Positions 21,981 through 47,483 of a DNA stretch of 64,000 bases are shown piece by piece (the stretch's first letter is position 1; the number at the start of each line of letters is the position of its first letter). The stretch comes from Schmidtea nova (Eukaryota). The DNA lies in NCBI GenBank assembly GCA_044892505.1, contig CM097882.1:183024001-183088000 (forward strand), written 5' to 3'. A model generated the notes under the pieces. The model had not been told where the DNA came from and did no database searches. It was given only the letters and a program-made list of their open reading frames with translations. The position numbers and the translations under genes were made by a program.

Positions 21981-22015
21981 ATTGGTCAATCCAACCAGAC
22001 GGATCAGTATAAATA
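21981..22015 (+). promoter_or_regulatory. Putative LTR promoter: reverse CCAAT (ATTGG) and TATAAATA
   Basis: ATTGG at 21981 and TATAAATA at 22008-22015, between an inverted CTGATCC/GGATCAG pair. This implies a short U3 of about 400 bp and a very long transcribed R-U5. Confidence 0.5.
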
Positions 22016-23529: not shown

Positions 23530-23715
23530 AAACTGATTAACAAATGTTGAAATTGTGTTAAAATATTAGAGTTCATTAGTGCATTTTTGTTTTGTTGTTT
23601 TGAGTTTTGGTTTTGTGTTTTTAATAGTTCGTATTGTAACCTAATAATCCTATAATCAAATTTTAATTTTTCACATAATTTAATCATAAAGTAAATATCC
23701 TAAATAAATTATAGA

Positions 23716-24336: not shown

Positions 24337-24788
24337 AATTGTTATCGTTCTTTTAAATGGATTTAATTAACTTTACAAATGATTAGATAAAGATAGAATA
24401 AAAGTATAAACTCATTTTACAAAATACCTAATAGAGATAAATAAATAATTAAACGAGCATTTGTTGAAATACTTCTTGCAGAATGAGAGAGGTTAAAGAT
24501 AAATTTACTGAAAGATATTGCGGAACACCCAAATAGATGATTAAAGCATAAGTCCTTCTAACGGCAGCGATGAACCCGTAAACATAAATGGGGAGTAGTA
24601 CTAGCGATAGTGCTCACCTGCCCATCATTGTTTAACCACCCTGCGCATCACCAACTTGGTTATACAGGGAAATAATCAAGGGCGCTTGAGTGTAGAATTG
24701 CAATTTTGTGCATGATCATGGATGAGGGAATCCCTAGTCATTGTTAGAGCATTTTTCATCTAACCCCTCCATGAACCCAGCATAAATT

Positions 24789-24806
24789 TGGGGGCTCAGC
24801 CGGGAT
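24789..24806 (+). promoter_or_regulatory. Primer-binding site, tRNA-Pro-like
   Basis: TGGGGGCTCAGCCGGGAT, 6 nt after the LTR end; 16/18 identical to the tRNA-Pro PBS TGGGGGCTCGTCCGGGAT used by MLV. Confidence 0.85.
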
Positions 24807-25112: not shown

Positions 25113-25574
25113 ATGGAGGAAAAACTGAAAGAAATTGAAGAATTTCTCAACACAGAAAGCGAAACATTAGAAACGATTGGCAAGAAAATAAACCGATTTA
25201 GAGAAATTGAATTTCAGGAACCCACAACACAGACTGAGGAAACAGAGGAATTAATAAAGATAACAGAGAGAACAAGAAAAATCGACATAAAGACCCGCTA
25301 CAAATGGTACAGAACACGATTAGAAAACGCAGAATTAAATATTAAGTGCAAGCAAATAGAACAACAATTAACCTCAACATACAATCAATGGAGGGCGCAA
25401 GGGGTAGAAGCAGCGAAAAAATACCGACAGTGCTATATATGTGGGGATAGCGAGATACAAATTATGTTTTTACCTTGCGGACATTTTCGTTTTTGTAAGA
25501 TATGTGCCAGCAAGTGCGACCTATGTCCTATGTGCAACCTGAGGATAGACGATAAAATTATTGTATATTTATAA
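25113..25574 (+). CDS. Coiled-coil plus C-terminal C3HC4 RING protein (IAP/MDM2-type RING)
   Basis: CYICGDSEIQIMFLPCGHFRFCKICASKCDLCPMCNLRI at the extreme C-terminus. No BIR motif seen. Confidence 0.85.
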   Translation: MEEKLKEIEEFLNTESETLETIGKKINRFREIEFQEPTTQTEETEELIKITERTRKIDIKTRYKWYRTRLENAELNIKCKQIEQQLTSTYNQWRAQGVEAAKKYRQCYICGDSEIQIMFLPCGHFRFCKICASKCDLCPMCNLRIDDKIIVYL

Positions 25575-26055
25575 TAAATAAATTTGAATGGAATTTTATT
25601 GGTTTATTAATGATGAAATCATGGGTACAATTGTCATATATAAATAATTTTTGAGCTACTGCAAAGTAGTCCGATAAGAATCCATTGGGAGGTACCGATT
25701 GATCAACCTAGTCAGGGTGTATAGAAAGGGGCCCATCGCAAATGTTGGAAAGTTTTTGTGATGTGATTGATCACCACATCCTGCATTAATGGACCAACGC
25801 GATCTTTTTGTATATTTTGGTTGGGGAGAGAGATAGGGAAATCTTGATGGAGTAAAGCGCGCACAGAGAAAAATAAATAAAAAGTTGAAGCAGACTGATC
25901 AGGAATTAGTTATGATAGAATAAAGAGATAAATGACAATTTTTGAAAGAATAAAAGGTGCATAGTCAGCTCGCATAGAAGTAGTTATAACTCAGCTGAGA
26001 AATTTTAATCGCTAGCGAAGTTAAGAATTGTGATTAACCGGTTAAATAAAGTTAG

Positions 26056-26433
26056 GAGATTTGTCCCTTGAAACAAAGGGTTATGAGATTTGTCCCTTGA
26101 AACAAAGGGTTAGGAGATTTGTCCCTTGAAACAAAGGGTTATGAGATTTGTCCCTTGAAACAAAGGGTTAGGAGATTTGTCCCTTGAAACAAAGGGTTAG
26201 GAGATTTGTCCCTTGAAACAAAGGGTTATGAGATTTGTCCCTTGAAACAAAGGGTTAGGAGATTTGTCCCTTGAAACAAAGGGTTATGAGATTTGTCCCT
26301 TGAAACAAAGGGTTAGGAGATTTGTCCCTTGAAACAAAGGGTTATGAGATTTGTCCCTTGAAACAAAGGGTTAGGAGATTTGTCCCTTGAAACAAAGGGT
26401 TATTAGCGGTTTGTCCCTTGAAAAAAAAGGGTT
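26056..26433 (+). repeat. Tandem array of a 29-bp unit, 12 near-perfect copies plus 1 degenerate
   Basis: GAGATTTGTCCCTTGAAACAAAGGGTTA[T/G], with no spacers. Confidence 0.95.
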
Positions 26434-26475
26434 GAGGCCAATGAGCCATATTGAATGACCTAGCTAGGCGTTATG

Positions 26476-26699
26476 GAGAGATTAAATTAAGGCCAAGAGA
26501 GCCATTTGAGAGATTAAATTAAGGCCAAGAGAGCCATTTGAGAGATTAAATTGAGGCCAATAGAGCCATTGGAGAGATTAAATTAAGGCCAAGAGAGCCA
26601 TTGGAGAGATTAAATTAAGGCCAAGAGAGCCATTTGAGAGATTAAATTGAGGCCAATAGAGCCATGTGAGATATAAAATTGAGGCCAGAAGAGCCATAG
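26476..26699 (+). repeat. Tandem array of a 32-bp unit, 6 near-perfect copies plus 1 degenerate
   Basis: GAGAGATTAAATT[A/G]AGGCCAA[G/T]AGAGCCATT[T/G]. Confidence 0.9.
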
Positions 26700-27308
26700 T
26701 GAATTATAGAGATATCCGGATAAATAGTAACAGGGGGAATATAGACCCATAGTATAATCGTCGACGAGATTTAGAGTAGTGCGCACCAGTAGTTAAGAGA
26801 ATGCGAGTAAAGCTGATTATGCAACCTTAAGTAAAGCATGCAAGAAGAATAGTAAAAATTTGGGCTGACCGGAGCAACCGGCAGAATGAGTAAAACGATT
26901 GCTAGCAGGGAATAATGAATAGAAATGATAAAATAATGATAAACGAGTCAGAAAGACTCAGGTAATTAGAGCGCTCGAGCGACCAATAATTTGGGAAACT
27001 GTGGGAAAAGTAATCGATTTGATAAAACATAGATAATTATTACGACGTAAATAGATAATTGTGACCAGTCTATAGATAATTTAAATAGACTAAAAATAAA
27101 GGGGAATCTGGGAATTGGGAAATAATGAAAACCCAGTAATAAGTAATCCCGAAAGAAAGGGAATAAAAGCGCGACGATAACAATAATGTATCGTTGAGGA
27201 CCTTTGTATTTTAGATATACAAATCAATCAAACCAACCAATCGAACAAGAAGAATCAGAACACGATAAGAGATAAGACAGGAAAATTGAGTATACAAAAG
27301 TAATCCCG

Positions 27309-30300
27309 TTGAGAACAGGAGTAAAGAGTGTCGTAATAAAGCCAACAGAAAAGAAAGTCGGCAGTGAGAGCAATAAAAAAGACAAAACTAGTACTACAAC
27401 AAAAACAACAAAAAAGCAGAAAGCCGGCAAAGATAACAACAAGAACCCACAAGGGAGTAAAGCGAGGAAAATAATAAGAGATAAAGCGATTATCGAAAAC
27501 GATAAATTGTCAGTAGTAAGCAACAGTTCAAGTAACAAAGAAAACCAAGCAGAACCCAAAGAGAGCCAAACAAGTGAAATAGAAGTAGACGAAACTAATA
27601 ACGATAATATAGAAGAATTAGAGAGTGAAGTAGAACAAGAAGTAGAAATCAACGAGAGCGATAACGATAGTATAATATCAGATCACGAAGTAATAAGAGA
27701 AACAGAAAGCGATTCAAGCTCGAGTAAAACGGAAGACGAACATAACAACGAACTAGAAACAAGAGGAAACGAAAGTAAAATAACTCAAGACAGCGGAATT
27801 GAAATGGGTGAACCAAGAGAAGAAATAAAGGATAAATTTTCAGGAGAACCGTTTAACGGAGATGCGAGCAAATTAGAAACCTTTTTAAAAGAATTTGGCA
27901 TATTCGTGGAGGTATGCAAGTGGAAAGCTGAAACAACGGTAAGCAGAATTCAGTTATATTTGAAAGATAGTGCATTGGACCTATATTTGGAAGCGAAAAA
28001 TGGTACCAATCCACCTACAAGCTGGACAGCGATAAAGGATTTTTTCCAACAAACATTTGGAATAAATAAAGTGCTGAGCGAGGCATTCATAGAATTCTCA
28101 ATGAGGAAACAAAAGATGAATGAATCTAATGCGGTATACGCGAGCGAACTGAAAAAATTAGCAAAATCGGTATTCAAGGATGGAGGTCCAATAAACGAGG
28201 AGTTAATGGCAGCCATCTTCATAGGAGGATTAAGAAGACCCGACATAAGAGCACAAGTGGGATGTCAAGGATGCAAAACCATAGATCAAGCGTTAGAAAC
28301 AGCTAACCGATTTGAATTGCATATGATAGGAAGCGAAGGCAGAATTTATTTAGCCATGGACACAGCGCAAACCGAACCAGAAGTAAATCTCAACAATCAT
28401 ATTCCAAATTCGCAACAATTAAACCGACCACCCCCTCAACGAAGGAATGAAGGAAATAAAGTGCAGAACTTTGAAAATCAAAACAATTACAACCCTCAAA
28501 GACAAACAAAACAATGTAAAACATGCGGGAAGTTGGGACACTGGCAGCAAGAATGCTATCAAAATTTGAATTGCGGAAAATGTGGAGTCAAAGGACACTC
28601 GGAAAGCAGATGTTCTACAATAATCTGTTTTAATTGCGGACGACCTGGTCACTATTCAAGAAATTGCGGACAAAAAAGTAATCAACGAGGAAACTGGCAG
28701 AGTAATGGGAACCGACCAAATTACGGAAATCAAGCAAATACCGTAAACCGACCAGATTATGGGAACCAACAAGTCAATAATAACAATAATCAGAACAAAA
28801 CCACCCCCAAAGAAATACATTTAATGCAAGAAGTCCAAAGATTGACGGAACTTATAAACAATACGACGAGAGGAAATCCGCAAACCAATCAACAGCAAAT
28901 TAGCATGATGAGAAAAATAGAAAGCGAAAACGAACGATTGAATCGAGAAAGTCAAGCACGACACGCTCAGGAATGGGCAAGAATACAAAGAGAGGATGAA
29001 CAAAAACAGCAAGAAAGAGAACGACAACCTCTAAGAATTAACATGCTAAGAGCAACAAACCAAACAGACACTCGCGAGAAAGAAACCACACTGGAAATGA
29101 ATTCGATAGACCCGAATCCAGCCGACAACGAAAGTCGAAAAGAAATAGTACAAAAAGATGAAGAAGTAGAAAAAGAAGCAGAAAAGGGAGAGGAAACCGA
29201 GATAAACCAGGAAGAGAGAAGAAAAATTTGGAAAAAAGGAATGATGGTAATCATGCCCAACGACCATATGTTTCGATTCCAATATAACGCAAAAGAAAAG
29301 GTGGAAATACTGTTCAATAAAGTAAACCAGATGATTCCAGGAGTGACAAAACTGCCCAGAGAAGCGTTCTTACAAATAGGAGATGCACCATCAGTAAAAT
29401 TGAAATTAACGGATATATGGGAAAACATGGGAGTAGTAGAAACAAAAAGAAATGTGATGAGAATTAAAGAAATAGAACCAGAAGAAATACCACCACCAAT
29501 ACGTCACGAAACCCGAATCCGGCGAATATTTGAAGGAAAAATGATAAGAAGACGTTTAAAAGAGATAGACGAGTTGGGAAAGAAAATGGAAAAAGTCGAA
29601 GTAATAGAGGACAAGAGTGAACCAACACCAGAAATTGACAAAAACGAACCAGAACCAACGGAGAATATACAAGGAGAAACGAACCAAACAGCACATATTA
29701 ATATGTTAAGAAATACCACCAGAGAGTTTTCCGATGAAGAAGAAGATAGTGATATCAGTAGCCTAGCAGGAGACATATTAAACGAATCCGAAGACGAAAA
29801 TAAAGAGAGAGAAGTAATAAAGACCTCAGAACCTACACAGATAAAAGTAGATGAAATCCAGAAATTACTAGATAACTCGCTAGAAGTAATATATAACGAA
29901 GAGTTCATGGACAAGAAACAATATCGGAAATTCATGAAAGCATTATTACAAATGAACTACAAAGAATGGTTACAAGACCGGGAAGTAGACATGTTGAATC
30001 GATACGTAGGGAAATTAATAGAGGAACCACTTCTCAATTACACCATCTCAATAATAATAAATACATCTACACCAAGAATCTGGATCAAAACTCCATTTAC
30101 AGATGATATCTACAGATGGGTAGAGGACAGACTAGGGAGTTCATATAAAAACAAATTCATCTATTCGCAGAATAGACTCGTAAAGAAAAGAACGCACTTA
30201 GTAGAAACAGGTATATGGCCAGGAGAAATAACCCTATTATCAATATGTGATGAAAAGGAAGAAGAAAACCTACAAGAAGTTGCAAGGGAGGCAAACACGT

Positions 30301-32669
30301 GCTTCGAAAGGAGAATAAAACCTCGGTTAGAATACGAGAAAGAACGAGTCTTACGAAAGAATCTAAATTCCCTGATAGAACAAATCATACCACAAGTCAA
30401 AAAACATAGAAAAGAGTTAATGAGAAGCGAATACGAGAAATTGAAACGATGTATTGAGTGCATACGTGACACAAGTCACACGAGATGGTCACAAATCTCA
30501 CACGATAAATTAATCGCAAAAATGGGAAAAACAATGTTTAGACAAGGGAAAATAACAGATCTAAAAATTTTAGTAGAATTGCCTAACGAAGACACCAAAG
30601 AAATCGAAGTGGTAGCGGACTGCACCATTAAAGAATTAATAAATGTCATCAACGAGACACTAGTGCAAAGAGAACCAGAAGACGAAGGGGAAGACGACAT
30701 AATCATACAATACAACGAACATGTATTATGGGATCACGATGAGAGACGACTATATAAAATCGGTATATGGGATAATCACCAAACCATCCACGTTAGCAGA
30801 ATGGACGATACACCAAGAGAAACTGCTAAAGACGAGAAAAAAGAACGGGAACGACGGAAAGAAGTTGTGCGCAAATTACAACAAATAGTAGAAATTTATC
30901 GAAATTGGCGAATTTGGCCAGAGTGGGAAAATGTATTAGAAGAACTCAATCTCAACAGACGAATACGAACACCCGTAGAAAAACAATGGAACGAGAAAGG
31001 AAAATGTTGGGAACCAAAAGAAGGGGAATATGAAGAAGAATATAAAAGAGGAATTGAAGATGACTGCGAACCAGAGATGGGAAGGGTTTGCATGGTGACA
31101 AGGAAAGCTACGCCAATAGACCTAGATGGACCAGAAACCGCGGCTATGTGGTTGGAAAGGGAAAAGCAAAAAACGGAAGAATTTGTCGAAATATTAAAAA
31201 CTAATGCGCACGGTAAGAGAAAAGTAATAAAGGGTCTCGCAGATTTTTTCGTGGTAAATGGGGAAGATATAACATGCTTGCGTAAAGTAGCAAAAGCAAT
31301 CGCGGAATATAAAAGAGTTAACGAGTGGTGTCCGGAACAACTAGACCATGTAATTAGGAAATGGAGAAACCAAGAATTCTCGCAGGAAATTCCACAGAAA
31401 GTACATTTAAGAATAATATACCCAAACAAGGATAAGGAAGAGTTGTGGGTAGGAATAGCAGAAAAAATTCGAGATATTAAAAAGAAATTGAGATACGAAC
31501 CACCATTCCATTTACAACACCAAGGACGATCATTAGATAACAGTTTGGAAATCGGAATAACACCAGCACAATTAGACCTCATGAATACCTTGACAGTAGA
31601 AGCAATAGCGGGTCAACCATTGAAACGTAAAGAAGAAAACCATAAACCACACGGAAGTATAAGTACGCCGAGCCCGATGAAATCAGCACTAACACCAGGG
31701 ACAAGTTCGAGACGATCTGAGACAACACCCAGAGGAAATAGAGAAAGGACTCCACCACAACCATACGACGTGGACGAAATTTTAACGGATAGCGACGATA
31801 TGATAGAAGAGTTAACCGAATTAACAAGGGAAAAGGACGATAACATTTTCGAAAGAATACAGGAACTACCTACGACAATACAAGTAACTAACACCGGAGA
31901 AGCAGAAGTCGAAGAAGAAATAATAATAGAAGAAGTAAACGATTTGATAGAAGACGAAACGAGAGGAGCGAATGTCGAAAATGTACAATTAACGCAAGAA
32001 ATGGAAAGATGGTTAGAGGAAAGAGCTAACGAACCAAGAGATGTTACGGAAGAAACAGGACGGGCAACAAGGTTCGTGGAAACAGGTACAGGAATGGATA
32101 AACGACCTAGAGGTAGACCTAAGACAGACCCAGCGAATATAGTTATAAGAAATAAAGATGAAAAGAGACAAGATCAATGGGAATTATGCCTAAGGAAACT
32201 AAATAAAATTGCGGAGATGAAAGAAAAAGAGACAACACCAATATGTCAAGGGGAGGAATGGATATCGAAAACAATAATGGAAATATTGGCAATAATTGAT
32301 CCGGAATTAAGAAAATACTGGCGTATAACTGAGATAAGCGAAAAGGCGAAGTCACTACACAGCGCAATCGCACCCATCTTACCGGAATTCATAAAAGAAA
32401 AGACGAAGTCAAACCATTTAGACTGGCAAGGAACCACTACGTTAATAAAGAAACTGACAGAAAGAGCGGAAACGGATAACAAATACGTAATAGCCATTGC
32501 ATACACGATATACAATCTGTTGACATTGAGTAGAGGTCGACCAAAACCCACTGCATTAGAGAGACATATAAAAAATACCGCAAAGATTATAGCTAGAGAA
32601 ATAGAACCCTACGTCATTAACAAAGGAGGATGGGAAACATTTATAAAAACTAACCAGAAGAAAACATAA
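27309..32669 (+). CDS. gag: Extended Gag polyprotein: acidic/basic N-terminus, capsid-like region, 3 CCHC zinc knuckles, ubiquitin-like modules, C-terminal Bcl-2-like domain
   Basis: FSGEPFNGDASKLETFLKEF capsid-like start; CKTCGKLGHWQQEC, CGKCGVKGHSESRC and CFNCGRPGHYSRNC; BH2-like YVINKGGWETF. The track start is TTG and the first ATG is at 27804, so the true start is uncertain. Confidence 0.9.
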   Translation: MRTGVKSVVIKPTEKKVGSESNKKDKTSTTTKTTKKQKAGKDNNKNPQGSKARKIIRDKAIIENDKLSVVSNSSSNKENQAEPKESQTSEIEVDETNNDNIEELESEVEQEVEINESDNDSIISDHEVIRETESDSSSSKTEDEHNNELETRGNESKITQDSGIEMGEPREEIKDKFSGEPFNGDASKLETFLKEFGIFVEVCKWKAETTVSRIQLYLKDSALDLYLEAKNGTNPPTSWTAIKDFFQQTFGINKVLSEAFIEFSMRKQKMNESNAVYASELKKLAKSVFKDGGPINEELMAAIFIGGLRRPDIRAQVGCQGCKTIDQALETANRFELHMIGSEGRIYLAMDTAQTEPEVNLNNHIPNSQQLNRPPPQRRNEGNKVQNFENQNNYNPQRQTKQCKTCGKLGHWQQECYQNLNCGKCGVKGHSESRCSTIICFNCGRPGHYSRNCGQKSNQRGNWQSNGNRPNYGNQANTVNRPDYGNQQVNNNNNQNKTTPKEIHLMQEVQRLTELINNTTRGNPQTNQQQISMMRKIESENERLNRESQARHAQEWARIQREDEQKQQERERQPLRINMLRATNQTDTREKETTLEMNSIDPNPADNESRKEIVQKDEEVEKEAEKGEETEINQEERRKIWKKGMMVIMPNDHMFRFQYNAKEKVEILFNKVNQMIPGVTKLPREAFLQIGDAPSVKLKLTDIWENMGVVETKRNVMRIKEIEPEEIPPPIRHETRIRRIFEGKMIRRRLKEIDELGKKMEKVEVIEDKSEPTPEIDKNEPEPTENIQGETNQTAHINMLRNTTREFSDEEEDSDISSLAGDILNESEDENKEREVIKTSEPTQIKVDEIQKLLDNSLEVIYNEEFMDKKQYRKFMKALLQMNYKEWLQDREVDMLNRYVGKLIEEPLLNYTISIIINTSTPRIWIKTPFTDDIYRWVEDRLGSSYKNKFIYSQNRLVKKRTHLVETGIWPGEITLLSICDEKEEENLQEVAREANTCFERRIKPRLEYEKERVLRKNLNSLIEQIIPQVKKHRKELMRSEYEKLKRCIECIRDTSHTRWSQISHDKLIAKMGKTMFRQGKITDLKILVELPNEDTKEIEVVADCTIKELINVINETLVQREPEDEGEDDIIIQYNEHVLWDHDERRLYKIGIWDNHQTIHVSRMDDTPRETAKDEKKERERRKEVVRKLQQIVEIYRNWRIWPEWENVLEELNLNRRIRTPVEKQWNEKGKCWEPKEGEYEEEYKRGIEDDCEPEMGRVCMVTRKATPIDLDGPETAAMWLEREKQKTEEFVEILKTNAHGKRKVIKGLADFFVVNGEDITCLRKVAKAIAEYKRVNEWCPEQLDHVIRKWRNQEFSQEIPQKVHLRIIYPNKDKEELWVGIAEKIRDIKKKLRYEPPFHLQHQGRSLDNSLEIGITPAQLDLMNTLTVEAIAGQPLKRKEENHKPHGSISTPSPMKSALTPGTSSRRSETTPRGNRERTPPQPYDVDEILTDSDDMIEELTELTREKDDNIFERIQELPTTIQVTNTGEAEVEEEIIIEEVNDLIEDETRGANVENVQLTQEMERWLEERANEPRDVTEETGRATRFVETGTGMDKRPRGRPKTDPANIVIRNKDEKRQDQWELCLRKLNKIAEMKEKETTPICQGEEWISKTIMEILAIIDPELRKYWRITEISEKAKSLHSAIAPILPEFIKEKTKSNHLDWQGTTTLIKKLTERAETDNKYVIAIAYTIYNLLTLSRGRPKPTALERHIKNTAKIIAREIEPYVINKGGWETFIKTNQKKT

Positions 32670-32678
32670 GCCAAGAAT

Positions 32679-35600
32679 ATGAAAAAGAAATTCGAAAAAA
32701 TATTGGAAGAGTTAGAAAAAGAACAAGCAGGAACAGGAAACGCAAAGTCATCAATGAATCTGAGTGCCATAATAATGATGATGTTGATTTGGATGATTAG
32801 CACCGATAGCGCAACAGCATTCGAAGTGTTTGATTGCGACCAAATGAAGTTAGGAGAAAAGTATTCATTGAGAGGTACGGAGCAATGCAAAGATGCAACT
32901 CCAGTAGAGTTGCAAAAGATTAAAAAGGAACAATGGTACCACGTGTATCAAGAAGCAGAACTCATAAAGACAATGGTGAATGAATGTAAAGTGCAGAAGA
33001 CGAGATTCGCATTCTACTGCGGGAGAGGACATTATTCAGCAATTGTCATGCCAGGAACGGAAAGAGAACCAATCGTGTTACAAGGAGAAGACTGCGAAGC
33101 ACTGTTTAAACATGGAGAAGTAACAACAAGGGATAAAATCAAGATAAGAGGAAAGCCAGGAATGATGATGCAACAGACGTACTATGTAGCAGGACGGATT
33201 ACGGGAGGAGAAGGATATTGTCAAGGCGAAACCTACCCGATATTCGGAGTACCCGCAACCAACTTAGTGGTGATGGATACGTATATAGTCGAACTAAAAA
33301 GCTACGAAGCATTCTTCGAACCAACAACGGGAGAAATGAAAACGTTATCCATGTGTAAAATCGACAGGAGCATGTGTCAAACGGGAATGTCAACATTAGT
33401 GTACAAACCAAAGGTGAACGAATGTCAATTACAACTGCTACAAGGAGCACAGTTCGACGAAATCCAAGGAAAAACGTTTCAGGAAGAAGACGATGACGAC
33501 AAAGCTAGAGCAAAGCATCTCAAGGAAGCTTTGGAGAATAAAAGACAATTGAAACCGGATCATAGAGAAAAACGGATAGAGATGAGAGCCACACCAACAG
33601 TGTTGATAACCACAAATCAAGATGTGGGAATGAGATTCATAAAAGGGAAAGCAACCCTTAAGTGTAGTACAACGGTATATGAAACGAATTACCCAGGAAT
33701 ATATGTGTCAAAACAAGAAGTGCCAAATGCGAAACCCAAAATCGACACAATGGATATCAAACTACACTTGTATGTGAATAATAAAATGGATTTCCTATTC
33801 CATAGAGGACAAGCCTCATTACAAAAAGTGTATTACGATCTGATCAATAACGATTGTATACTGAATCGAGAAATACTAAAGACAAAATTGGCCGTAGCAA
33901 TTACGAATCCCGATAGCGCGATGCCATTATTACCACTGAGAGAAGGACATTTCGGAAGAGTGGTTGGAGAAGCAATGTATGTATACATCTGCGAAAAGAC
34001 ACACGCATCGCTAGCAGCAACAACACAGTTGAAACCTGGAACCTGTACAAATGAGTTAGAAATCGATTACAAAGGAAAAGTACGATACGTTCAACCGGTG
34101 ACGAGAATCATCAATCCACCAGGGTTTGAACCAAATCCATTCAACTGTAGTAATGCGTATGGACCGCTTTATCAGAAACCAGATGGTAAATGGGTTATGT
34201 TCCCAGGAAGATCCGAAGTGATAGCACCAAGAGAATTCGAGCTAATGCAGTTGTCAAAGGATAGGCAATTCAGCGACGTAGATGTCTCAAACAATGGAAT
34301 ATATAGTCCGAAAGATTTAGAAGCAGCAAGGCAGAATATATTATTCCCAGCAAGAAGAGAAGCATTACTGTCAAATATCGTAACGATAACGGGAGGAACG
34401 GATTATCGAGAAGGACCGAATTATGAACTATTGTTGTCACCAGCACATTTCAAGAAAGCCACAGAAAATATGATGAAAGCAATGTGGGGAAGATTTTTGA
34501 TATTCGGACAAATGATGGCCGGAATACTGGGGGTCATATTAATAATCCAAATCGTCAGAGTGATAATAACGCAAATGCTCGCATGTTTCGATATCTACAA
34601 GAGAGAAAAGAAAGTGAATTGGAAAATGGTAGTAGGGTTTTTACCATTCCTTGCGAAAACGATGGTGTTACACGGGCACTCAAAAGATATCCACCGAATA
34701 AAAAGACTCCTAAAGATATTAGCAAAAATGAAGGGAACAGATGAAGAAGTAGGACGAAAATTTAAAAAGATAATGAATGATGAACAAGCAAGACAACAGC
34801 TCAAGAGAGAAAGAAAAGGTTTATGGGAGAGGATGAAAGGATATAAAACCCAAAATGATTCGAGTGACGACGACGATGACGATGACGACTATAAGGGAGG
34901 ACAGGTGTATAAGAACCAAGCACCACAATACATCGAAAAGAATCCAGCCGACGCATGGAAATGTTACGCACCTCCACCAACAATGTATCAAGAACCACTA
35001 CAAGGAGGAAAAAATAGCACGATGCAAATGATGCCAATGACAAATGTATATCCCATGATACCAGAAGATTATAAAATGAGAAGATGTAGAAGCGTAGATC
35101 CACAAGGGGATACACACACGATCGCAGTAATGTCATCAAACACAGGTCCAGTATTAACCACGACAATAGAGATTAACGGAAGGGAAATCGAAGCAATGAT
35201 CGACACGGGAGCAAACATTTCCGCCATCGACATCAAATGGATACCACAAGAGCAAAGACGAGAAATAGAAAGGACAAACGTCCATGTAATTGCATGTAGC
35301 AAAGAAGTTGTAGAAGTAGCAGGAAGATGGTGGGTAAAAATACGCCATTTAAACACGGAAATCGATACGTACGTAGCTGTCATACCAGCATTAAGCGTAC
35401 CTTGCATTATCGGAACAGATTTGATGCCAGCACTATTTAAAGAGATTGTAATCGATCTTGGAACAATGAGACTAAAAGATCGCACCGGACAAATATGCGC
35501 AATAGAAGCCAAAGTGACAAGTTCAAAGCAAATGATAATACCCGCAAGAAAGGAAAAAATATGTTATGTAAAAATAGATCCAACAATCCAAGGGGATATG

Positions 35601-38600
35601 ATTTTCGAACCAAGTAAGAGATTCGAGAAAAGAAAAGCGTTGCCAATGGCAAGAGGACTAGTTAACATAAACGATGATGGAGAAATCCCAATAAACGTAG
35701 TAAACTTCGATGAAGAGGACAAAATAATATACGAAAACGAAAGATTAGGTAAATTAACCCCAATGATGGATATCGAACTACCAATAGAAGGAGCAGAGAA
35801 AGATAAAGAACCAACCTGGAATATTGATAGTGAATTATTAAACGAGGATCAAAAGAAGCAGTTAGAAAAACTTTTGATGGAGTATAAGGATATATTTGCA
35901 GCATCCGATTTGGATCTAGGAACATGTGATGTCACACTACATACAATACCATTAACAGATGAAACACCAATTGCATTAAGGCCGTACAAATTAGCGGAAG
36001 CACAGAAAGCAGTAGCAGAAGCAGAAGTGAAGAAAATGTTGGATGCAGAAGTAATCGAACCAAGTTGTTCACCCTGGCAATTTCCAGTGGTAATGGTAAA
36101 GAAAAAAGACGGAACACAGAGATTCTGCATAGACTATCGAAGATTGAATACAGTGACAAAAAGGGATACTTACCCATTACCAGACATTAATGAAATGCTA
36201 TTAACATTACAAGGAGCAGCATATTTTACGTCGTTAGATCTGAAAAGCGGATATTGGCAAATAAAAATGAAGGAAGAAGATAAGGTGAAAACTGCCTTTA
36301 CCATCGGGAGAGATTTATATCAATTTCGAAAAATGCCATTTGGATTAACGAACGCACCAGCATCATTTCAGAGATGCATGAATTTCGTCACCCGTGGAAT
36401 AAAGCAGTGTATGGTCTACATAGACGACTTATTAATTTATTCTAGCACGTTTGAACAACACATACAGGATATTCGAGATGTATTCGTTAGGCTTAGACAA
36501 TGGAAGTTAAAACTCAAGCCATCAAAATGCGATTGGGCAAAAGAAAAGGTTACATTTTTAGGACATATAGTGTCAGCAAAAGGAAAAGAACCGGATCCCA
36601 GAAATATCGACAAAGTAAAAGAATGCCCAGTACCAAAAACAATAACCCAAATACAAGAATTTCTCGGACTATGTGGATACTATAGAAAGTTTATAAAAGA
36701 TTACGCTGGAATCGCAAAGCCTATACAGGAACTGGTAAAGAAAGATGTATCATTCATATGGGGAGATGAACAACAAACAGCCTTTGAAACATTGAGAGAT
36801 AAACTGATAACCGCACCCATATTAGTACACCCAGACTTTAAGAAGCCATTCTTACTTGCAACGGATGCAAGCGGATATGCAGCAGGAGCCGTATTAGGAC
36901 AATACGACGACGAAGGAAAAGAACGGGTAATCGGATATTATAGCCGAACATTCAAAAAGCACGAGAAAAATTACTCAGTAACAGAACGGGAAGCATTAGC
37001 AATTATATTAGCTATTAAACACTTTAAATATTTACTATGGGGTCACATCATTTGCATAACAACAGATCACCAACCGCTTGTATGGTTAGGACAGCACAAG
37101 GAAACATCCAGTAGATTAATGCGATGGGCAATGCAGTTACAGGAGTACTCACCAGACATAAAATTTAAATCAGGAAAAGCGAATGCGAATGCAGATTGTA
37201 TGTCAAGACTGACATTTCCGGAATTAACCGATCCTGATGTACAACGAATTTGTGTGTTAATAGCGGAAGATTTAGATTTTAGTGAGTTAAAGAAAGATCA
37301 ACAGGAAGACAAAGAATTGGGACAGATCATAGAGTTCCTAACGTCTCGAAATATGGAGGTATTTAAGGATAATAAGGAATTAAAGGAACATATAGGAAAA
37401 TATCAACATCGCTACATAATAAATAAAGGATGGTTGTTAATACAAGACGGGGAAAAGAGATTGATGTGTTTACCGGAAAACAGAAGGAAAGAGATAATGA
37501 TCAAATACCATGATGGGAAATTGGGAGGTCATATGTCCGAGAAAAAGACCATAAATCGTATGAGACAAAAATATTATTGGCGAACAATGGAAGAAGATAT
37601 AAAGGAATGGATTAAAAATTGTCTAACTTGCGCAACCAGAAAGGATAGTGGGAAGAAATGGAAGAACCCGCTACAACCAATGCCGATACCAGCAGAGCCA
37701 ATGACAACTATAGCAATGGACGTAATAGGACCACTACCAGAAAGTTTAAACGGAAATATTTATATATTGGTAATAACGGATTATCTGACAAAATTCCCGG
37801 AAGCATTTGCCATGCAAGATCAAAAAGCAAAAACCGTAGCAAAAATTTTGGTAGAAGAAATATGTTGCAGATACGGAACTCCAAAACAAATACTCACAGA
37901 CCAAGGAACTAATTTTATGAGTGAGTTATTGAACGAGGTGACAAACTATTTCAGAATAGCAAAATTGAGAACTTCACCATATCACCCGCAAACGAATGGA
38001 CAAACAGAGAGATTCAACGGTACATTGATTAGAATGTTATCAAATTACGTCAGCAGACACCAAACTGATTGGGACGAATACATAAAATTATGTTTAATGG
38101 CATACCGAATGTCGATACATGCAGCAACAAAACTAAGCCCATTTCAACTTATGTATGGAAGAGAATGCAACATGCCCATAGATTTAGAGTATCAGCCACC
38201 ATTATCACAATATATGGAAGACGACGACTACGTAACCAAATTCAAAGAAAGAATGCAGGAAATATGGAAAACGGCAGAACTCAACATTAAATTTTATCAG
38301 GAAAGTTATAAGGACTTACACGACCAGAAGAAAAATGTTAAAGCGAACGATCTAAAACCAGGAGATTGGGTGATAATAGAAACTCCCGAAATAATACCAG
38401 GAACAGTTAAGAAACTCCAAAGACCTGGAAGAGGACCTTATGAAATTATATACAAAAAGGACAATAATGTCAAAGTTAAGCTAATAAATCGACCGTTAAT
38501 ACGACCCATATATGTAAACACCTGCAGATGTAAGAAGGTGCCTAAAACGATAACTACAACACCAGAAAATCGAATAATAACTAGATCACAAACAGCCAGG

Positions 38601-41600
38601 ATAAATATGCTCAGAGCTAATGTAACTGAAGACGACAAAGCAGAAATAAGGCAAAAAGAAATCAGAAACAAAGAGATCATATTGAAGGCGAGAGAAATAA
38701 TGGGAAGATGGCATGTTAGAGACGAAGCAGGCATATCAAGGGATATTAGACATATGATTAGCCGTTACGCACAAGGATTACCAACCGAACCAATTATTTC
38801 TGAATTATTGGAAAAAATCCCTGAAATACTCTTATTGAAAGATGTAGGAGGACAACCAGCCTTACATAATGCGATAGAGTGTAAAAACATTGAAAGAGCA
38901 AAAGAATTCCTAAAAATCGCAAAAGAAACAAACCAAAACTTGGACGTAGGGAATCGGGAACAAGAAACTCCATTAATGACAGCCGCAATCCACCAAGCAG
39001 ATAAAGAAATGATAGACCTATTGATAAAAGCTCATTTCAGTTGGACAGAACGAGATAGAGAGGACAAAACAGTGCTAAATCACGTAATATGGAGTTCTCA
39101 CCAACCAATGCTGAAATACATAATAGCTAACTCCACTTGGGAGATAGACGAACTAGTTAAAGGAGACATTATCAAAGAGGCAATCAAAATTGGTAAATGC
39201 AACACGATCCGTAAGTTAATCAAATGGAAACGACCAGAAGATGATACATGGGTCTTAGACATAAACGAAGTATACAGCGAAGGACAAAACGCACTGTTAA
39301 GATACCTTTTGAAATTTACTTGTGATCAGAAGACATTACTAACCTTATTAGACAGAGGAAACATAAACATCACAAAGAATGAAGAAGAATACAAATTCGA
39401 TAAAGAGAAGGAAGCCTTATTCAACAAGATTAGGAAATGGTGTGCGAAACCACTTGATAAACTAATAACATACAAAGACATAAACAATTTTAACGAGAAA
39501 TACCAGACGATAGTAAGCGAATATGAGGAATTAGTAAAAATCTTAAACCATCCCGAAAAATGCAAACAGGTTTTAGAGAAAAAAGAAAGAGAAAGTAACA
39601 AGAAACTCACACCACTCTTCAAAGCAGAAGCACCATACCAAGCTAGACTAGATGCGATACAAGAAAAAGCAAAAGAATTGTTACCGGAATTCGAGAATAG
39701 TAAACATGCACTGGAAATACTCGGCGCATTAGTTGAAAAAGTACACGCATACGCAAAAGGAACATACAATGGTAACGACATAGTAATAATAAAAAAGGAA
39801 ATGCCAGTAACATTCCTATTACCAAAAGACGGAATAATGCCCATACATAGAGCTCTACGAAATGGCAAAGATAGGAAAGTAATGGAAATTGCAAGAGTAA
39901 TGCTAAATTGCGGAAGCAATATGAATATGATAGACGAGAAAGGAGATACACTTATGGTATTTGCAGCAAGGGCCAAAACGAAAACAAAGGTATTAGAAGA
40001 ACTATACAAAGCAGGTGCAGGACTTACAGGAAAGACAGATAAAGATAATTCGATATTAGATGTAGCATTATTAACACACAATTGGGAAATGGTCAATTTC
40101 ATTAAAACCGTCCCAAATCAGGAAGAAATAGATCACCTAACTGATACGGTCAAGAAACCCAGTGTACTAGCAATGATGAACAACGTCGAACTAACAGAAT
40201 CAATACTTACGTGGATAAATCCTAATACTAACGAACCAGCATTCAGGATTAATAAATTTACAGAACATAACCAAAACTGGTGTATAAGAAGTGCCTTAAT
40301 AACGTATAAATGGCCAGAGATATTGAAGATGTTTATGGAAAGAAAGGATCTAAGAATCACAACCAGCCCGAAAGAAGAAAAATACACAGGCAAATGGAAA
40401 GAATTGATGAAGACATACATCAACAATTGGATCAAGGCCAAAAAGGAAATCTTGGAATATAAATCCACTAACAAAGTAATACCGGAGCAGGTAGAAACAC
40501 AAGAATTTGAGGCAAGCAATCTAACGACATTAGCATATGCAAAATTAATAGAAGAAATCAATGTCGAGGACGACATTTTCGACGAGCCAGGGGGAGATGA
40601 CAACACAGATAGTGACGACGATAACAACTCAGAAAATTCAAGCGATCACGAACCACCCGATAAAGAGGAAAACGAGAGAAAAGACAAGAAACGAGACAAG
40701 GAAGGAAAGAAAGGTGAAGACGAAAAACAAAGAGATGAAGAGAGAGAACAAGGAACAAACGACCAAGGAGATAAAAATGACACCCAAAGAACAGGTTATA
40801 AATCAACTATAAAACCATTCTTCAGACCAGAGTTACTATTATTAACAGTGATTTTAACGTTAATTAATCCAAGTCAAGGAATGACATGTGAAGAAAGGGC
40901 AATAATACAAATAAAAAACGCAAAAGGAATCGAACGAGTATGTTGGTCGAAAAAGGACAAAATCACGGAACAAAATAGCCCGATGGATTGCAGAATCTCA
41001 GAACACGAGCAAGAAATCATAGAGATCAACGACCTAGATCTAGATACCTGGTACAAAATATGCACCGTTAGGAAACAAAAGCATCCAAGATCACACAACA
41101 CAATCGCATGTGCAAAATACCAAACACCTAAAGCAGCCATGACAATACAACAGTCACCCAAAGGAGATTACATCCTCGGAAAATGTGGAAGAACAGAGAC
41201 ACAGGGAACAGAAAACAAAAAACCCCAGGCAATAGATAAGCAAACAACACCAACCCTACGAATTACAATAAAGAGGCCCGAAACAAGAATTGCCACAAAC
41301 GAAACCGAAAGAGTGTCTTACCAAATGGAAGTATTATGCTTAGCACTCATACTAATAATAATAAAACGATTAGAGGAAGGAATAGAAATTGAAACTATGA
41401 CAATAACAGAAGTAGAAGATACACAGAATACTAACATAAAATGTTGGGCGAGGAATAACGAGGAAATCGGCGTAAATGAAATAAGGAAAAGTCGAAAACC
41501 AACAACGAATAAAGTAATTAAAGTATCCAAAGTAAAAGCAGATAAGACGTACAAACTATGCCTACTAGAAAAAGAGACAAACAAGAAAGGTACCACAAAA

Positions 41601-44282
41601 TGTAAAACATTCCAACCTGGAGAAGTAATAAAGTTCAGAAGGAGAACGAGGAAGAGAAATAAACAAATCAAACAGAAAGTAAACATAACATTAGAAATAA
41701 AAGAGATAGAACCAAATGTGAAAGGAGTATGCTGGAGGAAGTACGAAAAAGAAACGAATGAAAGAAAGACACCACAATGTCGAACAAACACAGGAACAAC
41801 GACAATTCAAATAAAAGGTTTAGAAAGTAAACAAACCTACGAAATATGTTTAGTAAAGAAAAATGATCAGATAACGATAAACGACCTAGAATGCGGAATA
41901 TACACCACTTCATCCGGAACAAGAACTAAAACGTTAACACGAAAAAATAAAAGAAGACAACGAAACAAAGGGAAACCGAAGTACACCACTACCTTTAAAA
42001 ACAATAAACAACCGATAAGCCAAGAAGTTACGACAAAACCCGAGAAAAAGACATCAGCAACTCTGACATTATGGAAAATAGAGAATAAAACATTGGAGAT
42101 ATGTTGGATAATAGTCCAGAAACATATAAGAAGACAATCAAGAGAGTGCAGAAAAACAAATAAAGAAATCAAGATCGAAAAACTACAATTTAATAGCGAG
42201 TACGAAGTATGTACAATAGAAAAAACGGACGCACTAGGAAACCAACAAGAAAGATGCGAAACCTACTATACACCAGCGAACGCAACATCAAAAGGAATAA
42301 CAAGGAAACTCGAATTCAGGGAACTAAGCCAAACGAATGAACAAATGGACGTAGAAAAAACAATAACCGACCCTCAAGCAAAATGGACACCCGAAGAAGT
42401 TATCAAGGAAGTCAAAAGAAAGCAAGAGGAACGGGAACAATTAATGAGAAAACTAAAGGGACAATACGGAATAATGTTCAACCAAAGCGAATCTATACAA
42501 ACAGACGAGAATAAAGAAATTAAAGAACTAATTGGCTTAGGAATATTAACAGCGACCATACCAGTAATAATCGCGTTATCAGCTATATGGATACGCAAGA
42601 TAAACCCAAAGAAATCGGTAACCCAATGGACAAATAGAGACAGTACAAGCCATGGAGTGGAAATGCTAGAAGAAGAAGCACGAGAAGAACCAAAAAAGAA
42701 AGAAGCAAAAAGCGGAAAACTAGGAATAAACAACAAAGACAAGAAAATAAAAGAGATTAAAGGAGAAGAGAAAAAATATGAAAGGCGAACCAGAAGCCTA
42801 CCGCAGAGTTCAACATGGTTGAGTCTAACAATAATATTGACATTAATTAATAGGGAAGAAGCAATAAACCCACAGACAGGGATAAAAGTAATAAATGTCC
42901 AGGAAGTCGAGAAAATATGTTGGTATAGAGAAGATGAACCAATTGGAGAAAATAACCCACTAAAATGCATAATCAGAAAATCCGACCAGGATATCGTACG
43001 AATAGAAGAAATGGATGGAGGAACCATGCATCGGATATGCATAATAGAAAAGGAAAAGAAGTCGGGACTACCTAAGACAGTCGTATGCCAGAAATATGAA
43101 ACGCCTAGACTTGAATGGTATAGAGTAAAACCAACAAAGAAAGAAATCAAAAACACAATAGATCAACCAGCAACTCAGATAAGAAACACAACGGATAAAC
43201 CAGGAGAAGGAGAGAAAAGCACCAATAAAACGAGAGAAAGAATATCACCCCAACAGGAGTGCGTATGCATAGCATTAATAATAGCAATGTCCAAACGTAT
43301 CAATAAAGGAATAACAATAGAACAAATGGCCATGACAATAAGGAGAAAAGGCCGGAGTAGCAACAAAATATGCTGGGGATGGTACAACGAACAAAAAGAA
43401 TACCAAGTTCAGACAAGCGACGAATCACGAACAAACAAGGAAACCGAAATACAAGAAATACAAATGGACGGAGAAGGAAGTATATGTATATGGGAGAAAG
43501 GAATCCAAGAAGATCAACCCGGAATAGAAAAGTGCAAGACATTCCAAAAAGGAGAAATTCTGAAATTCGATGAAAAAGAATTAACCAAAACAGAAAGAAC
43601 TCTGACATTAACAGGACTTGATCAGACAGTGAAAGGAATATGTTGGACAAAACATAACCCAGAAGGAGAGGAAGGTAACCTAACCCACTGTAAAGAAACA
43701 GGGAATAAGGAAAAAGTCGAATTAAAGAAAATGGAAGTAAATAAGACATACGCGATATGTACCTTCACTAGAAAAGGTTCAGAAAAACCAGAATGCGGAT
43801 TATATCAGATCTCAGAGAAACTACAACAACAGATCAAACCATTAAACGTGGAAAACCGAACAAAAGAAAATAACGTCAAACAACTACTAAATCGCCATTG
43901 GTCTACACAAGAAGTAATGAACAAAGTCAAGAATCAAGTACAGAAGGAGAAGAAGCCAGAGGCTCAAACCCAAAATGAGATAAAAGCGAATCAGAATAAA
44001 ATCAAAGCAACAAACCGTGGAAAAACAGTAATAGGATTAATCAGTATAGGAATATTAATAGCATATGGGATAATGACGACAAGCATAATAGTATATTGGA
44101 GATACAGAAAGAGAAACAAAGCGACAGCCATACAATGGCCAGATATTAAAATTATGAAGCAAAGAATAGAAATACCAGAAGAGATACAGCAAGAATTCCA
44201 AAGAAGAACGAAAGGTAACGAATTCTGGAAACAAAGAGAAGACGAAGAACGATACGAGGAAAAGACGATAATGATGGTATAG
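32679..44282 (+). CDS. pol: Env-Pol-cargo polyprotein (3867 aa): signal peptide, chuvirus-like glycoprotein with TM, PR, RT, RNase H, integrase, ankyrin repeats, two FN3-like membrane modules
   Basis: MIDTGAN (35202), VYIDDLL (36417), ATDASG / NYSVTEREALA / TDHQPL, HDGKLGGH..CLTC, MDVIG..TDQGTNF..TERFNGTL, GPY. Ankyrin motifs GQPALHNA, ETPLMTA and GIMPIHRA. Confidence 0.95.
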   Translation: MKKKFEKILEELEKEQAGTGNAKSSMNLSAIIMMMLIWMISTDSATAFEVFDCDQMKLGEKYSLRGTEQCKDATPVELQKIKKEQWYHVYQEAELIKTMVNECKVQKTRFAFYCGRGHYSAIVMPGTEREPIVLQGEDCEALFKHGEVTTRDKIKIRGKPGMMMQQTYYVAGRITGGEGYCQGETYPIFGVPATNLVVMDTYIVELKSYEAFFEPTTGEMKTLSMCKIDRSMCQTGMSTLVYKPKVNECQLQLLQGAQFDEIQGKTFQEEDDDDKARAKHLKEALENKRQLKPDHREKRIEMRATPTVLITTNQDVGMRFIKGKATLKCSTTVYETNYPGIYVSKQEVPNAKPKIDTMDIKLHLYVNNKMDFLFHRGQASLQKVYYDLINNDCILNREILKTKLAVAITNPDSAMPLLPLREGHFGRVVGEAMYVYICEKTHASLAATTQLKPGTCTNELEIDYKGKVRYVQPVTRIINPPGFEPNPFNCSNAYGPLYQKPDGKWVMFPGRSEVIAPREFELMQLSKDRQFSDVDVSNNGIYSPKDLEAARQNILFPARREALLSNIVTITGGTDYREGPNYELLLSPAHFKKATENMMKAMWGRFLIFGQMMAGILGVILIIQIVRVIITQMLACFDIYKREKKVNWKMVVGFLPFLAKTMVLHGHSKDIHRIKRLLKILAKMKGTDEEVGRKFKKIMNDEQARQQLKRERKGLWERMKGYKTQNDSSDDDDDDDDYKGGQVYKNQAPQYIEKNPADAWKCYAPPPTMYQEPLQGGKNSTMQMMPMTNVYPMIPEDYKMRRCRSVDPQGDTHTIAVMSSNTGPVLTTTIEINGREIEAMIDTGANISAIDIKWIPQEQRREIERTNVHVIACSKEVVEVAGRWWVKIRHLNTEIDTYVAVIPALSVPCIIGTDLMPALFKEIVIDLGTMRLKDRTGQICAIEAKVTSSKQMIIPARKEKICYVKIDPTIQGDMIFEPSKRFEKRKALPMARGLVNINDDGEIPINVVNFDEEDKIIYENERLGKLTPMMDIELPIEGAEKDKEPTWNIDSELLNEDQKKQLEKLLMEYKDIFAASDLDLGTCDVTLHTIPLTDETPIALRPYKLAEAQKAVAEAEVKKMLDAEVIEPSCSPWQFPVVMVKKKDGTQRFCIDYRRLNTVTKRDTYPLPDINEMLLTLQGAAYFTSLDLKSGYWQIKMKEEDKVKTAFTIGRDLYQFRKMPFGLTNAPASFQRCMNFVTRGIKQCMVYIDDLLIYSSTFEQHIQDIRDVFVRLRQWKLKLKPSKCDWAKEKVTFLGHIVSAKGKEPDPRNIDKVKECPVPKTITQIQEFLGLCGYYRKFIKDYAGIAKPIQELVKKDVSFIWGDEQQTAFETLRDKLITAPILVHPDFKKPFLLATDASGYAAGAVLGQYDDEGKERVIGYYSRTFKKHEKNYSVTEREALAIILAIKHFKYLLWGHIICITTDHQPLVWLGQHKETSSRLMRWAMQLQEYSPDIKFKSGKANANADCMSRLTFPELTDPDVQRICVLIAEDLDFSELKKDQQEDKELGQIIEFLTSRNMEVFKDNKELKEHIGKYQHRYIINKGWLLIQDGEKRLMCLPENRRKEIMIKYHDGKLGGHMSEKKTINRMRQKYYWRTMEEDIKEWIKNCLTCATRKDSGKKWKNPLQPMPIPAEPMTTIAMDVIGPLPESLNGNIYILVITDYLTKFPEAFAMQDQKAKTVAKILVEEICCRYGTPKQILTDQGTNFMSELLNEVTNYFRIAKLRTSPYHPQTNGQTERFNGTLIRMLSNYVSRHQTDWDEYIKLCLMAYRMSIHAATKLSPFQLMYGRECNMPIDLEYQPPLSQYMEDDDYVTKFKERMQEIWKTAELNIKFYQESYKDLHDQKKNVKANDLKPGDWVIIETPEIIPGTVKKLQRPGRGPYEIIYKKDNNVKVKLINRPLIRPIYVNTCRCKKVPKTITTTPENRIITRSQTARINMLRANVTEDDKAEIRQKEIRNKEIILKAREIMGRWHVRDEAGISRDIRHMISRYAQGLPTEPIISELLEKIPEILLLKDVGGQPALHNAIECKNIERAKEFLKIAKETNQNLDVGNREQETPLMTAAIHQADKEMIDLLIKAHFSWTERDREDKTVLNHVIWSSHQPMLKYIIANSTWEIDELVKGDIIKEAIKIGKCNTIRKLIKWKRPEDDTWVLDINEVYSEGQNALLRYLLKFTCDQKTLLTLLDRGNINITKNEEEYKFDKEKEALFNKIRKWCAKPLDKLITYKDINNFNEKYQTIVSEYEELVKILNHPEKCKQVLEKKERESNKKLTPLFKAEAPYQARLDAIQEKAKELLPEFENSKHALEILGALVEKVHAYAKGTYNGNDIVIIKKEMPVTFLLPKDGIMPIHRALRNGKDRKVMEIARVMLNCGSNMNMIDEKGDTLMVFAARAKTKTKVLEELYKAGAGLTGKTDKDNSILDVALLTHNWEMVNFIKTVPNQEEIDHLTDTVKKPSVLAMMNNVELTESILTWINPNTNEPAFRINKFTEHNQNWCIRSALITYKWPEILKMFMERKDLRITTSPKEEKYTGKWKELMKTYINNWIKAKKEILEYKSTNKVIPEQVETQEFEASNLTTLAYAKLIEEINVEDDIFDEPGGDDNTDSDDDNNSENSSDHEPPDKEENERKDKKRDKEGKKGEDEKQRDEEREQGTNDQGDKNDTQRTGYKSTIKPFFRPELLLLTVILTLINPSQGMTCEERAIIQIKNAKGIERVCWSKKDKITEQNSPMDCRISEHEQEIIEINDLDLDTWYKICTVRKQKHPRSHNTIACAKYQTPKAAMTIQQSPKGDYILGKCGRTETQGTENKKPQAIDKQTTPTLRITIKRPETRIATNETERVSYQMEVLCLALILIIIKRLEEGIEIETMTITEVEDTQNTNIKCWARNNEEIGVNEIRKSRKPTTNKVIKVSKVKADKTYKLCLLEKETNKKGTTKCKTFQPGEVIKFRRRTRKRNKQIKQKVNITLEIKEIEPNVKGVCWRKYEKETNERKTPQCRTNTGTTTIQIKGLESKQTYEICLVKKNDQITINDLECGIYTTSSGTRTKTLTRKNKRRQRNKGKPKYTTTFKNNKQPISQEVTTKPEKKTSATLTLWKIENKTLEICWIIVQKHIRRQSRECRKTNKEIKIEKLQFNSEYEVCTIEKTDALGNQQERCETYYTPANATSKGITRKLEFRELSQTNEQMDVEKTITDPQAKWTPEEVIKEVKRKQEEREQLMRKLKGQYGIMFNQSESIQTDENKEIKELIGLGILTATIPVIIALSAIWIRKINPKKSVTQWTNRDSTSHGVEMLEEEAREEPKKKEAKSGKLGINNKDKKIKEIKGEEKKYERRTRSLPQSSTWLSLTIILTLINREEAINPQTGIKVINVQEVEKICWYREDEPIGENNPLKCIIRKSDQDIVRIEEMDGGTMHRICIIEKEKKSGLPKTVVCQKYETPRLEWYRVKPTKKEIKNTIDQPATQIRNTTDKPGEGEKSTNKTRERISPQQECVCIALIIAMSKRINKGITIEQMAMTIRRKGRSSNKICWGWYNEQKEYQVQTSDESRTNKETEIQEIQMDGEGSICIWEKGIQEDQPGIEKCKTFQKGEILKFDEKELTKTERTLTLTGLDQTVKGICWTKHNPEGEEGNLTHCKETGNKEKVELKKMEVNKTYAICTFTRKGSEKPECGLYQISEKLQQQIKPLNVENRTKENNVKQLLNRHWSTQEVMNKVKNQVQKEKKPEAQTQNEIKANQNKIKATNRGKTVIGLISIGILIAYGIMTTSIIVYWRYRKRNKATAIQWPDIKIMKQRIEIPEEIQQEFQRRTKGNEFWKQREDEERYEEKTIMMV

Positions 44283-47408: not shown

Positions 47409-47483
47409 ATGTGCGGAAACCAAGTGTAAATAAATTATGTAAAATAAAAAGTGTCAAGCTGTATTGACCGATGTATAAAAGAG

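Follow-up and report, generated by a model that had tools for sequence, protein, structure and literature searches.

In a 64,000-nucleotide stretch of the Schmidtea nova genome (contig CM097882.1, positions 183,024,001 to 183,088,000 of the forward strand; hereafter the window, whose numbering is used throughout), a long open frame places a sequence resembling a viral fusion glycoprotein ahead of the protease and reverse transcriptase of a retroelement. From what product is such a glycoprotein made, where does it come from, and how could a single chain hold both an ectodomain for the lumen and enzymes for the cytosol? The analysis reported here points to a class III Env standing in frame between Gag and Pol of a Burro-type Gypsy element, likely an envelope protein, which would be threaded into the endoplasmic reticulum (ER) from one polyprotein by means of an internal signal; we hold this reading with good, though not complete, confidence.

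A young Ty3/Gypsy element

The element occupies 29,778 bp on the + strand (21631-51408) and belongs to the ~30 kb class. It is bounded by a 5′ LTR (21631-24782; 3,152 bp, TG...CA, containing ORFs of 158 and 206 aa) and the paired 3′ LTR (48257-51408), and a 4-bp target-site duplication flanks it on both sides. The two LTRs differ by one mismatch over 3,152 bases, which indicates a very young insertion whose Pol was recently functional. Sequence inspection revealed at 24789-24806 a primer-binding-site-like 18-mer, possibly of the tRNA-Pro type. In the leader before gag, units of 29 bp and 32 bp are repeated in tandem (25964-26729), and an accessory ORF at 25113-25574 encodes a C3HC4 RING finger (PF13920, E 1.8e-11).

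The Gag part (27804-32669) comprises a capsid, CCHC knuckles, a weak ubiquitin-like region and a terminal BCL2-like domain, with Pfam matches to Retrotrans_gag (E 1.6e-4) and Ubiquitin_4 (E 0.056). It is followed by a + frame open without a stop from 32670 to 44282 (3,870 codons), in which Pfam finds, in this order, PF24664, RVP, RVT_1, RT_RNaseH, Integrase_H2C2, rve and ankyrin matches; the placement of env in the Pol frame, already proposed in the first-pass annotation of this DNA, is correct. The aspartic protease (RVP) lies at 35160-35432 with DTGA at 35202, the reverse transcriptase (RT) and RNase H at 36096-37148 with YIDD at 36417, the integrase (H2C2, rve core, GPY) at 37473-38441, and the top-scoring stretch of ankyrin repeats at 38862-39131 (Ank_2, E 7.7e-12). 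Further 3′, an accessory TRAF-like ORF (44857-46233) has Pfam matches for RING, TRAF zinc finger and MATH, and two more accessory ORFs of 353 and 189 aa (46347-48053) belong to no clear family; T-rich splice-acceptor-like sites occur at 44853 and 46344, a few bases 5′ of the ATGs of two accessory ORFs.

Among solved structures, the best relative of the RT/RNase H is the Ty3 RT (E 4e-80), followed by caulimovirus (2.5e-53) and foamy virus and MLV enzymes (1e-24 to 1e-27), and no Pfam family known as BEL/Pao-specific was matched at E≤0.1 in the ORFs scanned. By its LTR ends, target-site duplication, PR-RT-RH-IN order and Ty3-type RT, the element is a Ty3/Gypsy LTR retrotransposon (Metaviridae), as had first been suggested. 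A second, small Gypsy element is present at 53363-58392 on the - strand, with identical 305-bp LTRs and ORFs for a gag of 359 aa and a pol of 1,058 aa; no env-family match was found in it.

A class III fusion glycoprotein

The glycoprotein had been recognized as chuvirus-like from an order of nine motifs; all nine are present in that order between 32820 and 34360, the spacing having been loosened in several of the patterns, and family, profile and fold comparisons uphold the identification. PF24664 (Monjiviricetes fusion glycoprotein) matches env alone at E 2.1e-73 and within the whole ORF at E 9.5e-71, with a score of 247.8 bits where the cut-off is 27, and matched none of 14 control genomes. 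A profile of 10 homologues retrieved 2,407 relatives at E≤0.001, including the G proteins of Tacheng Tick Virus 4 (E 1.6e-66) and Wufeng shrew chuvirus 2 (E 1.4e-64); the ten matches that were looked up included two named chuvirus glycoproteins and one with beetle members. Searches of the PDB with the env sequence gave nothing useful, and a scan of viral contigs returned no relative. The predicted ectodomain (32820-34500) has one N-glycosylation sequon and 14 cysteines, all of them invariant in a 10-row alignment, apart from one fragment that is without the first two. A hydrophobic segment at 34512-34568, followed by a basic stretch, agrees with the transmembrane (TM) anchor previously placed at about 34490-34570.

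The AlphaFold monomer of env is good in its N-terminal third (pLDDT mostly 75-92 at residues 41-210) and poor in its C-terminal half, with a mean pLDDT of 56 and a pTM of 0.36. When this model was compared with 48,161 chains, ranks 1-12 were all class III fusogens or domains of them, which answers in the affirmative the fold comparison that had been suggested for this protein. The top match, HSV gB, has Z 8.2 (rmsd 5.4, 210 residues aligned), a value that barely exceeds the range stated by the fold tool for common arrangements; the others include the rabies and Chandipura G proteins and the thogotovirus GP. The class III matches span model residues ~30-325, and PH-domain proteins rank next. 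These matches agree with the class III arrangement of a fusion domain inserted in a PH-like domain and followed by a long helix, the C-terminal domains of the model being of low confidence. Taken with the family match, the modelled fold identifies 32820-34568 as the coding region of a class III fusion glycoprotein with its adjoining anchor, chuvirus-like by family.

The dN/dS is ~0.035-0.038 in two of three family pairs, synonymous sites being saturated or nearly so. This constraint bears on the function of the protein. Env could have been kept for another job, such as cell-cell or vesicle fusion, passage of Gag-RNA between cells, receptor blocking or the anchoring of an intracellular particle, and the only moderate hydrophobicity of the putative fusion loops, the many host-modulating cargoes of the element (also described in PMC6431247) and the relevant sections of the papers on these elements, which show no particle or infection, would all be compatible with it. 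Such a retention is nonetheless improbable, as the whole ectodomain and all cysteines are under strong purifying selection, env is always joined to an intact Pol and amplified together with it, and the chuvirus members of the Env family serve as entry proteins. Env likely serves as the envelope protein of the element.

The Gag-Env junction and the family polyprotein

In this copy the env-pol frame is directly preceded by an in-frame TAA (32667-32669) that ends the gag ORF; upstream of it lies a BCL2-like helical domain (32220-32650) ending in a GGW (BH2-type) motif, whose profile, built from 7 homologues, matches BCL2-like 10 at E 3.9e-4 and Bcl-xL at E ~1e-3. The TAA is private to this copy, since it was found in none of 40 sibling loci, which represent 38 distinct places, two being counted twice. 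The junction between the BCL2-like domain and env is open in 39 of these loci (37 of the 38 places), the remaining one having a different stop within the junction; one further sibling copy has a stop 86 codons upstream. The stop may be a mutation or an assembly error; as it separates Gag from Env-Pol, this insertion is probably defective on its own.

Of 3,573 candidates retrieved from the same genome, the 79 that were scored are all 99-100% identical; their open frames reach at least 5,600 codons in 23 copies and exceed 3,900 in 45, and the frames of sibling copies measure 5,641-5,736 codons. As read from these frames, the predicted family product joins Gag, Env and Pol in one polyprotein of about 5,650 aa, with the order Gag, BCL2-like domain, signal, Env, TM, PR, RT, RH, IN, ankyrin repeats and FN3 units. 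The first-pass annotation had described an env fused N-terminally to Pol behind an ordinary signal peptide, in an equimolar ratio. The fusion is present in this copy, but in the family it takes in Gag as well; accordingly, the signal-like segment exists but is internal, following the BCL2-like domain, and the predicted 1:1 ratio of Env to Pol extends to Gag.

A different proposal would be that gag ends in a true stop and that Env-Pol is made separately beyond it, through read-through, re-initiation or splicing, and begins with a conventional signal peptide. The TAA of this copy and the two ATGs that follow it, at 32679 and 32757, would be suited to such a product, and the Met at 32679 is shared by one sister family; the Met at 32757 is missing from two sister families. 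What makes this proposal quite improbable is the occurrence of the stop in 0 of 38 sibling places, together with the open Gag-Env-Pol frames of sister and more distant families of this genome (5,140, 3,401, 3,393 and 3,232 codons; env 81%, 66% and 36-37% identical) and the lack of an acceptor-like site near env. The lack of conservation of the stop led us to reject programmed read-through. Nor was there support for a spliced env-pol RNA: a crude T-rich rule, which picks out an acceptor before two accessory ORFs, detected none near env.

The single polyprotein is also favoured by the wider survey of relatives, in which env precedes Pol in sister families and in database proteins alike. A protease motif lies 3′ of env in the other families wherever the frame remained open, and the position of env, in frame before the protease, is kept at 35% identity across families. 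Among database proteins, P0004 and P0009 each combine Gag features with env and protease in a single chain, while P0006-P0008, P0011, P0017 and P0019 have env ahead of RT and integrase. Most of P0003-P0009 carry two or three aspartic-protease-like domains, in some cases with one after the integrase.

A recurring short motif, with a pattern tuned by eye, was observed at 29034, 29694, 31083, 35118, 35490, 37245 and 38598, marking the protease start and the positions after RNase H and after the integrase; none occurs between 31083 and 35118, which fits processing around env by a host peptidase and not by the element protease.

Membrane topology and a proposed mechanism

Around env, hydrophobic segments were detected at 32766-32822 and 34512-34568; the first belongs to the signal-like segment (32748-32819), after which signal peptidase is predicted to cut, before 32820. 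In ORF1 (gag) no segment exceeds the hydrophobicity threshold. In each of the 15 long database relatives examined, 144-1,360 residues of the ORF precede the signal-like segment, whereas in two chuvirus glycoproteins (P0028, P0032) the signal is N-terminal. From the end of the BCL2-like domain to the start of env there are 43-63 residues in the families of this genome. BCL2 proteins have a tail anchor at about such a spacing after the domain, and the signal-like segment would therefore sit roughly at the BCL2 tail-anchor position. The families of this genome have GGW ahead of the signal, yet among 15 database relatives just 3 do, so the tail-anchor idea is not general; P0001 aligns to the BCL2-like region without the GGW motif.

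Whether Pol remains in the cytosol depends on a second hydrophobic stretch (34614-34670), conserved across the clade, containing proline and predicted as non-crossing: a crossing there would place Pol in the lumen. On a rough, approximated insertion scale, used together with Kyte-Doolittle averages, this stretch scores +4.3, as compared with +3.7 and +5.0 for soluble enzyme cores and -1.0 for the TM; its copies in five other families score +3.0 to +5.5, like the soluble controls. A second TM-like peak appears in 4 of 15 relatives (P0001, P0005, P0009, P0018). A second TM after the env anchor is judged unlikely, and the rough scale predicts a lumenal ectodomain, a single crossing after env and a cytosolic Pol, the topology that had been anticipated; one crossing also agrees with the cytosolic Pol that a recently active element needs.

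According to the mechanism that we propose, Gag would be synthesized in the cytosol, until the hydrophobic segment after the BCL2-like domain initiates translocation and is cut by the host signal peptidase; after this cut, Gag or its BCL2-like end would stay fixed to the ER membrane by a tail anchor. In the lumen the ectodomain would fold, with seven possible disulfides, the TM at 34512-34568 would act as a stop-transfer that keeps Pol in the cytosol, and the element protease would then release PR, RT and IN. Particles could assemble on the fusogen-studded ER membrane, bud as enveloped particles and enter neighbouring cells. In the structural polyproteins of flaviviruses and alphaviruses, a capsid is followed by an internal signal-anchor, a lumenal glycoprotein and a stop-transfer, and both host signal peptidase and viral protease take part. 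The plan proposed here is similar, but the sequences are unrelated, and those viruses have class II fusogens and no reverse transcription. The predicted equimolar 1:1:1 ratio of Gag, Env and Pol would be awkward for particle building.

Predicted membrane units with FN3 repeats after the integrase

The part of the polyprotein after the integrase includes two further candidate membrane units. Unit 1 (40818-42593) consists of a signal-like segment, four cysteine-bearing FN3-fold repeats and a TM, and unit 2 (42798-44090) of a signal-like segment, three FN3-like repeats and a TM; self-BLAST of the post-integrase part showed no repeats, and it was the direct comparison that revealed the two units as homologous (30% identity, E 6e-48). 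The repeats are ~85 aa long, with invariant C, W, C and C, and the TMs have a basic C-terminal flank. One repeat was modelled (pLDDT 76); its best fold match has Z 7.6 (rmsd 3.4, 77 residues aligned), and nearly all of the top 50 rows of fold matches are FN3-type domains. Sequence methods gave less: Pfam fn3 stayed below its cut-off (E 0.0078), the profile of the repeats found weak matches only among PDB sequences (contactin-4, E 0.63, not reproduced when the search was repeated), and the ESM Atlas had no usable match for the region. The modelled repeat thus assigns an FN3 beta-sandwich fold to the post-integrase repeats, one repeat having been folded.

One FN3 unit closes the long frame in the two sister families L071 and L072, with 4 and 3 repeats, respectively; none was found in L014, L016 and P0001-P0008. 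In the distant 3,400-aa families L014 and L016, which are without ankyrin and FN3 matches, a strongly hydrophobic segment after the integrase ends the frame. Units 1 and 2 are predicted to be extra type I membrane proteins, so that the polyprotein could cross the membrane as many as six times; for unit 1 the predicted topology is ambiguous, since an internal hydrophobic stretch (41316-41372) scores as TM-like, and the signal-like segments of both units score weakly. As a guess, the units might act as attachment partners or decoys. Literature searches returned no description of FN3 units or of the topology, and the primary papers or their supplements may already contain them.

Origin of the env

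The env tree (FastTree, midpoint root) has 50 rows, namely five from this genome, 21 long database proteins and 24 of 112 free-standing relatives. The env of the window falls inside a 23-member clade (support 0.91) made only of families of this genome and polyprotein-borne envs, at 1.85 substitutions per site from another family of the same genome and at about 4.0 from the two named chuviruses; with these two as the only named chuviruses in the tree, it does not nest among chuvirus glycoproteins. The link between env and Pol consequently looks old, while the direction of transfer is not readable from a midpoint-rooted tree of this size. The 'fusedPR' tree label of P0098 (749 aa), which lies outside the Pol-fused clade, probably derives from a false motif match. 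P0067 has env behind DUF5641, an order opposite to that of this element, DUF5641 being a BEL/Pao integrase-end domain.

These distances bear on the possibility of a recent capture of a chuvirus G, or of a chance viral insertion into the Pol frame of one element. Chuvirus glycoproteins are indeed significant relatives, and a precedent is offered by the BEL/Pao 'Anakin' elements, which captured one (PMC7642597); but the exclusive composition of the clade, the greater distance to the named chuviruses than to a family of the same genome and the retention of the same env position at 35% identity render this origin very improbable. The chuvirus connection made in the first-pass annotation therefore stands as membership of one family and carries no sign of recent acquisition.

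Comparison with known elements

Burro1-4 / GYPSM1 are giant Gypsy-like elements of planarians, in which env lies in frame between BCL2 and protease and matches mononegavirus fusion glycoproteins (PMC6431247); Burro1 IAP work is summarized in PMC13465017. According to the Burro section of PMC6431247, these elements share with the present one a size of ~30 kb, multi-kb LTRs, one huge Gag-first polyprotein (4,873-5,140 aa in Burro), ubiquitin-like and BCL2-like motifs, env, protease, ankyrin repeats and TRAF/MATH cargo. Here the family frame is longer (about 5,650 aa), and TRAF is encoded by an accessory ORF further 3′. That section mentions neither the membrane topology nor FN3/TM units behind the integrase; the same review cites an HHpred match to 'gypsy Env', whereas the fold found here is of the gB-type class III. 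The BIR domain, a Burro cargo trait, had no match in the ORFs scanned, and a RING ORF is present. By layout, polyprotein size and cargo, the element is of Burro type, being set beside Burro1-4 by description.

PMC13524379 describes GAG-ENV-POL 'errantiviruses' of Nematoda, Bryozoa and Platyhelminthes, with a Ty3/Gypsy Pol and an HSV/gB-type ENV before pol that is likened to chuvirus envelope genes; nine are flatworm elements, six of them from Schmidtea mediterranea. The env of Smed_errantivirus_1 in that paper is, by eye, nearly identical to that of L013 of this genome, which is 36% identical to the env of the window. Gag, env and pol are treated there as ordered ORFs, the main text not using 'fused' or 'polyprotein', and its relevant sections do not discuss the consequences of topology for Gag and Pol. 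Single Gag-Pol ORFs exist in a related lineage (PMC12440569). Chuvirus (Jingchuvirales) G and the Anakin env share PF24664 and a gB-like fold with the env described here (PMC7642597), but chuvirus G is a free protein of 650-680 aa with an N-terminal signal (P0028, P0032), while env here is internal to a polyprotein, and Anakin is a BEL/Pao element, while this one is a Gypsy.

A Gypsy element whose env is of the gB/chuvirus type and stands in frame ahead of Pol has therefore already been published (PMC6431247, PMC13524379), contrary to the initial impression that the arrangement was without precedent in Gypsy, and in this respect the present result is confirmatory. The additions made here are the likely membrane-threading scheme and the two predicted FN3 surface proteins at the end of the polyprotein.

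Implications for giant planarian elements

A wider picture, possible but on the doubtful side, would have flatworms harbour active enveloped retroviruses in the form of Burro-type elements, with a flavivirus-like polyprotein of ~5,650 aa and up to six crossings. In it the tail anchor of a captured BCL2-like domain would double as the Env signal and tether Gag, and a gB-type fusogen would act together with one or two type I proteins built of FN3 repeats, as attachment or receptor-decoy partners. The present example, being very young, high-copy and strongly conserved, makes the infectivity of giant elements testable, and the predicted topology offers concrete expectations, namely a signal inside the chain, a Gag anchored at the ER and equal amounts of Gag, Env and Pol. 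In turn, the predicted FN3 units suggest that a second surface protein may stand alongside the fusogen.
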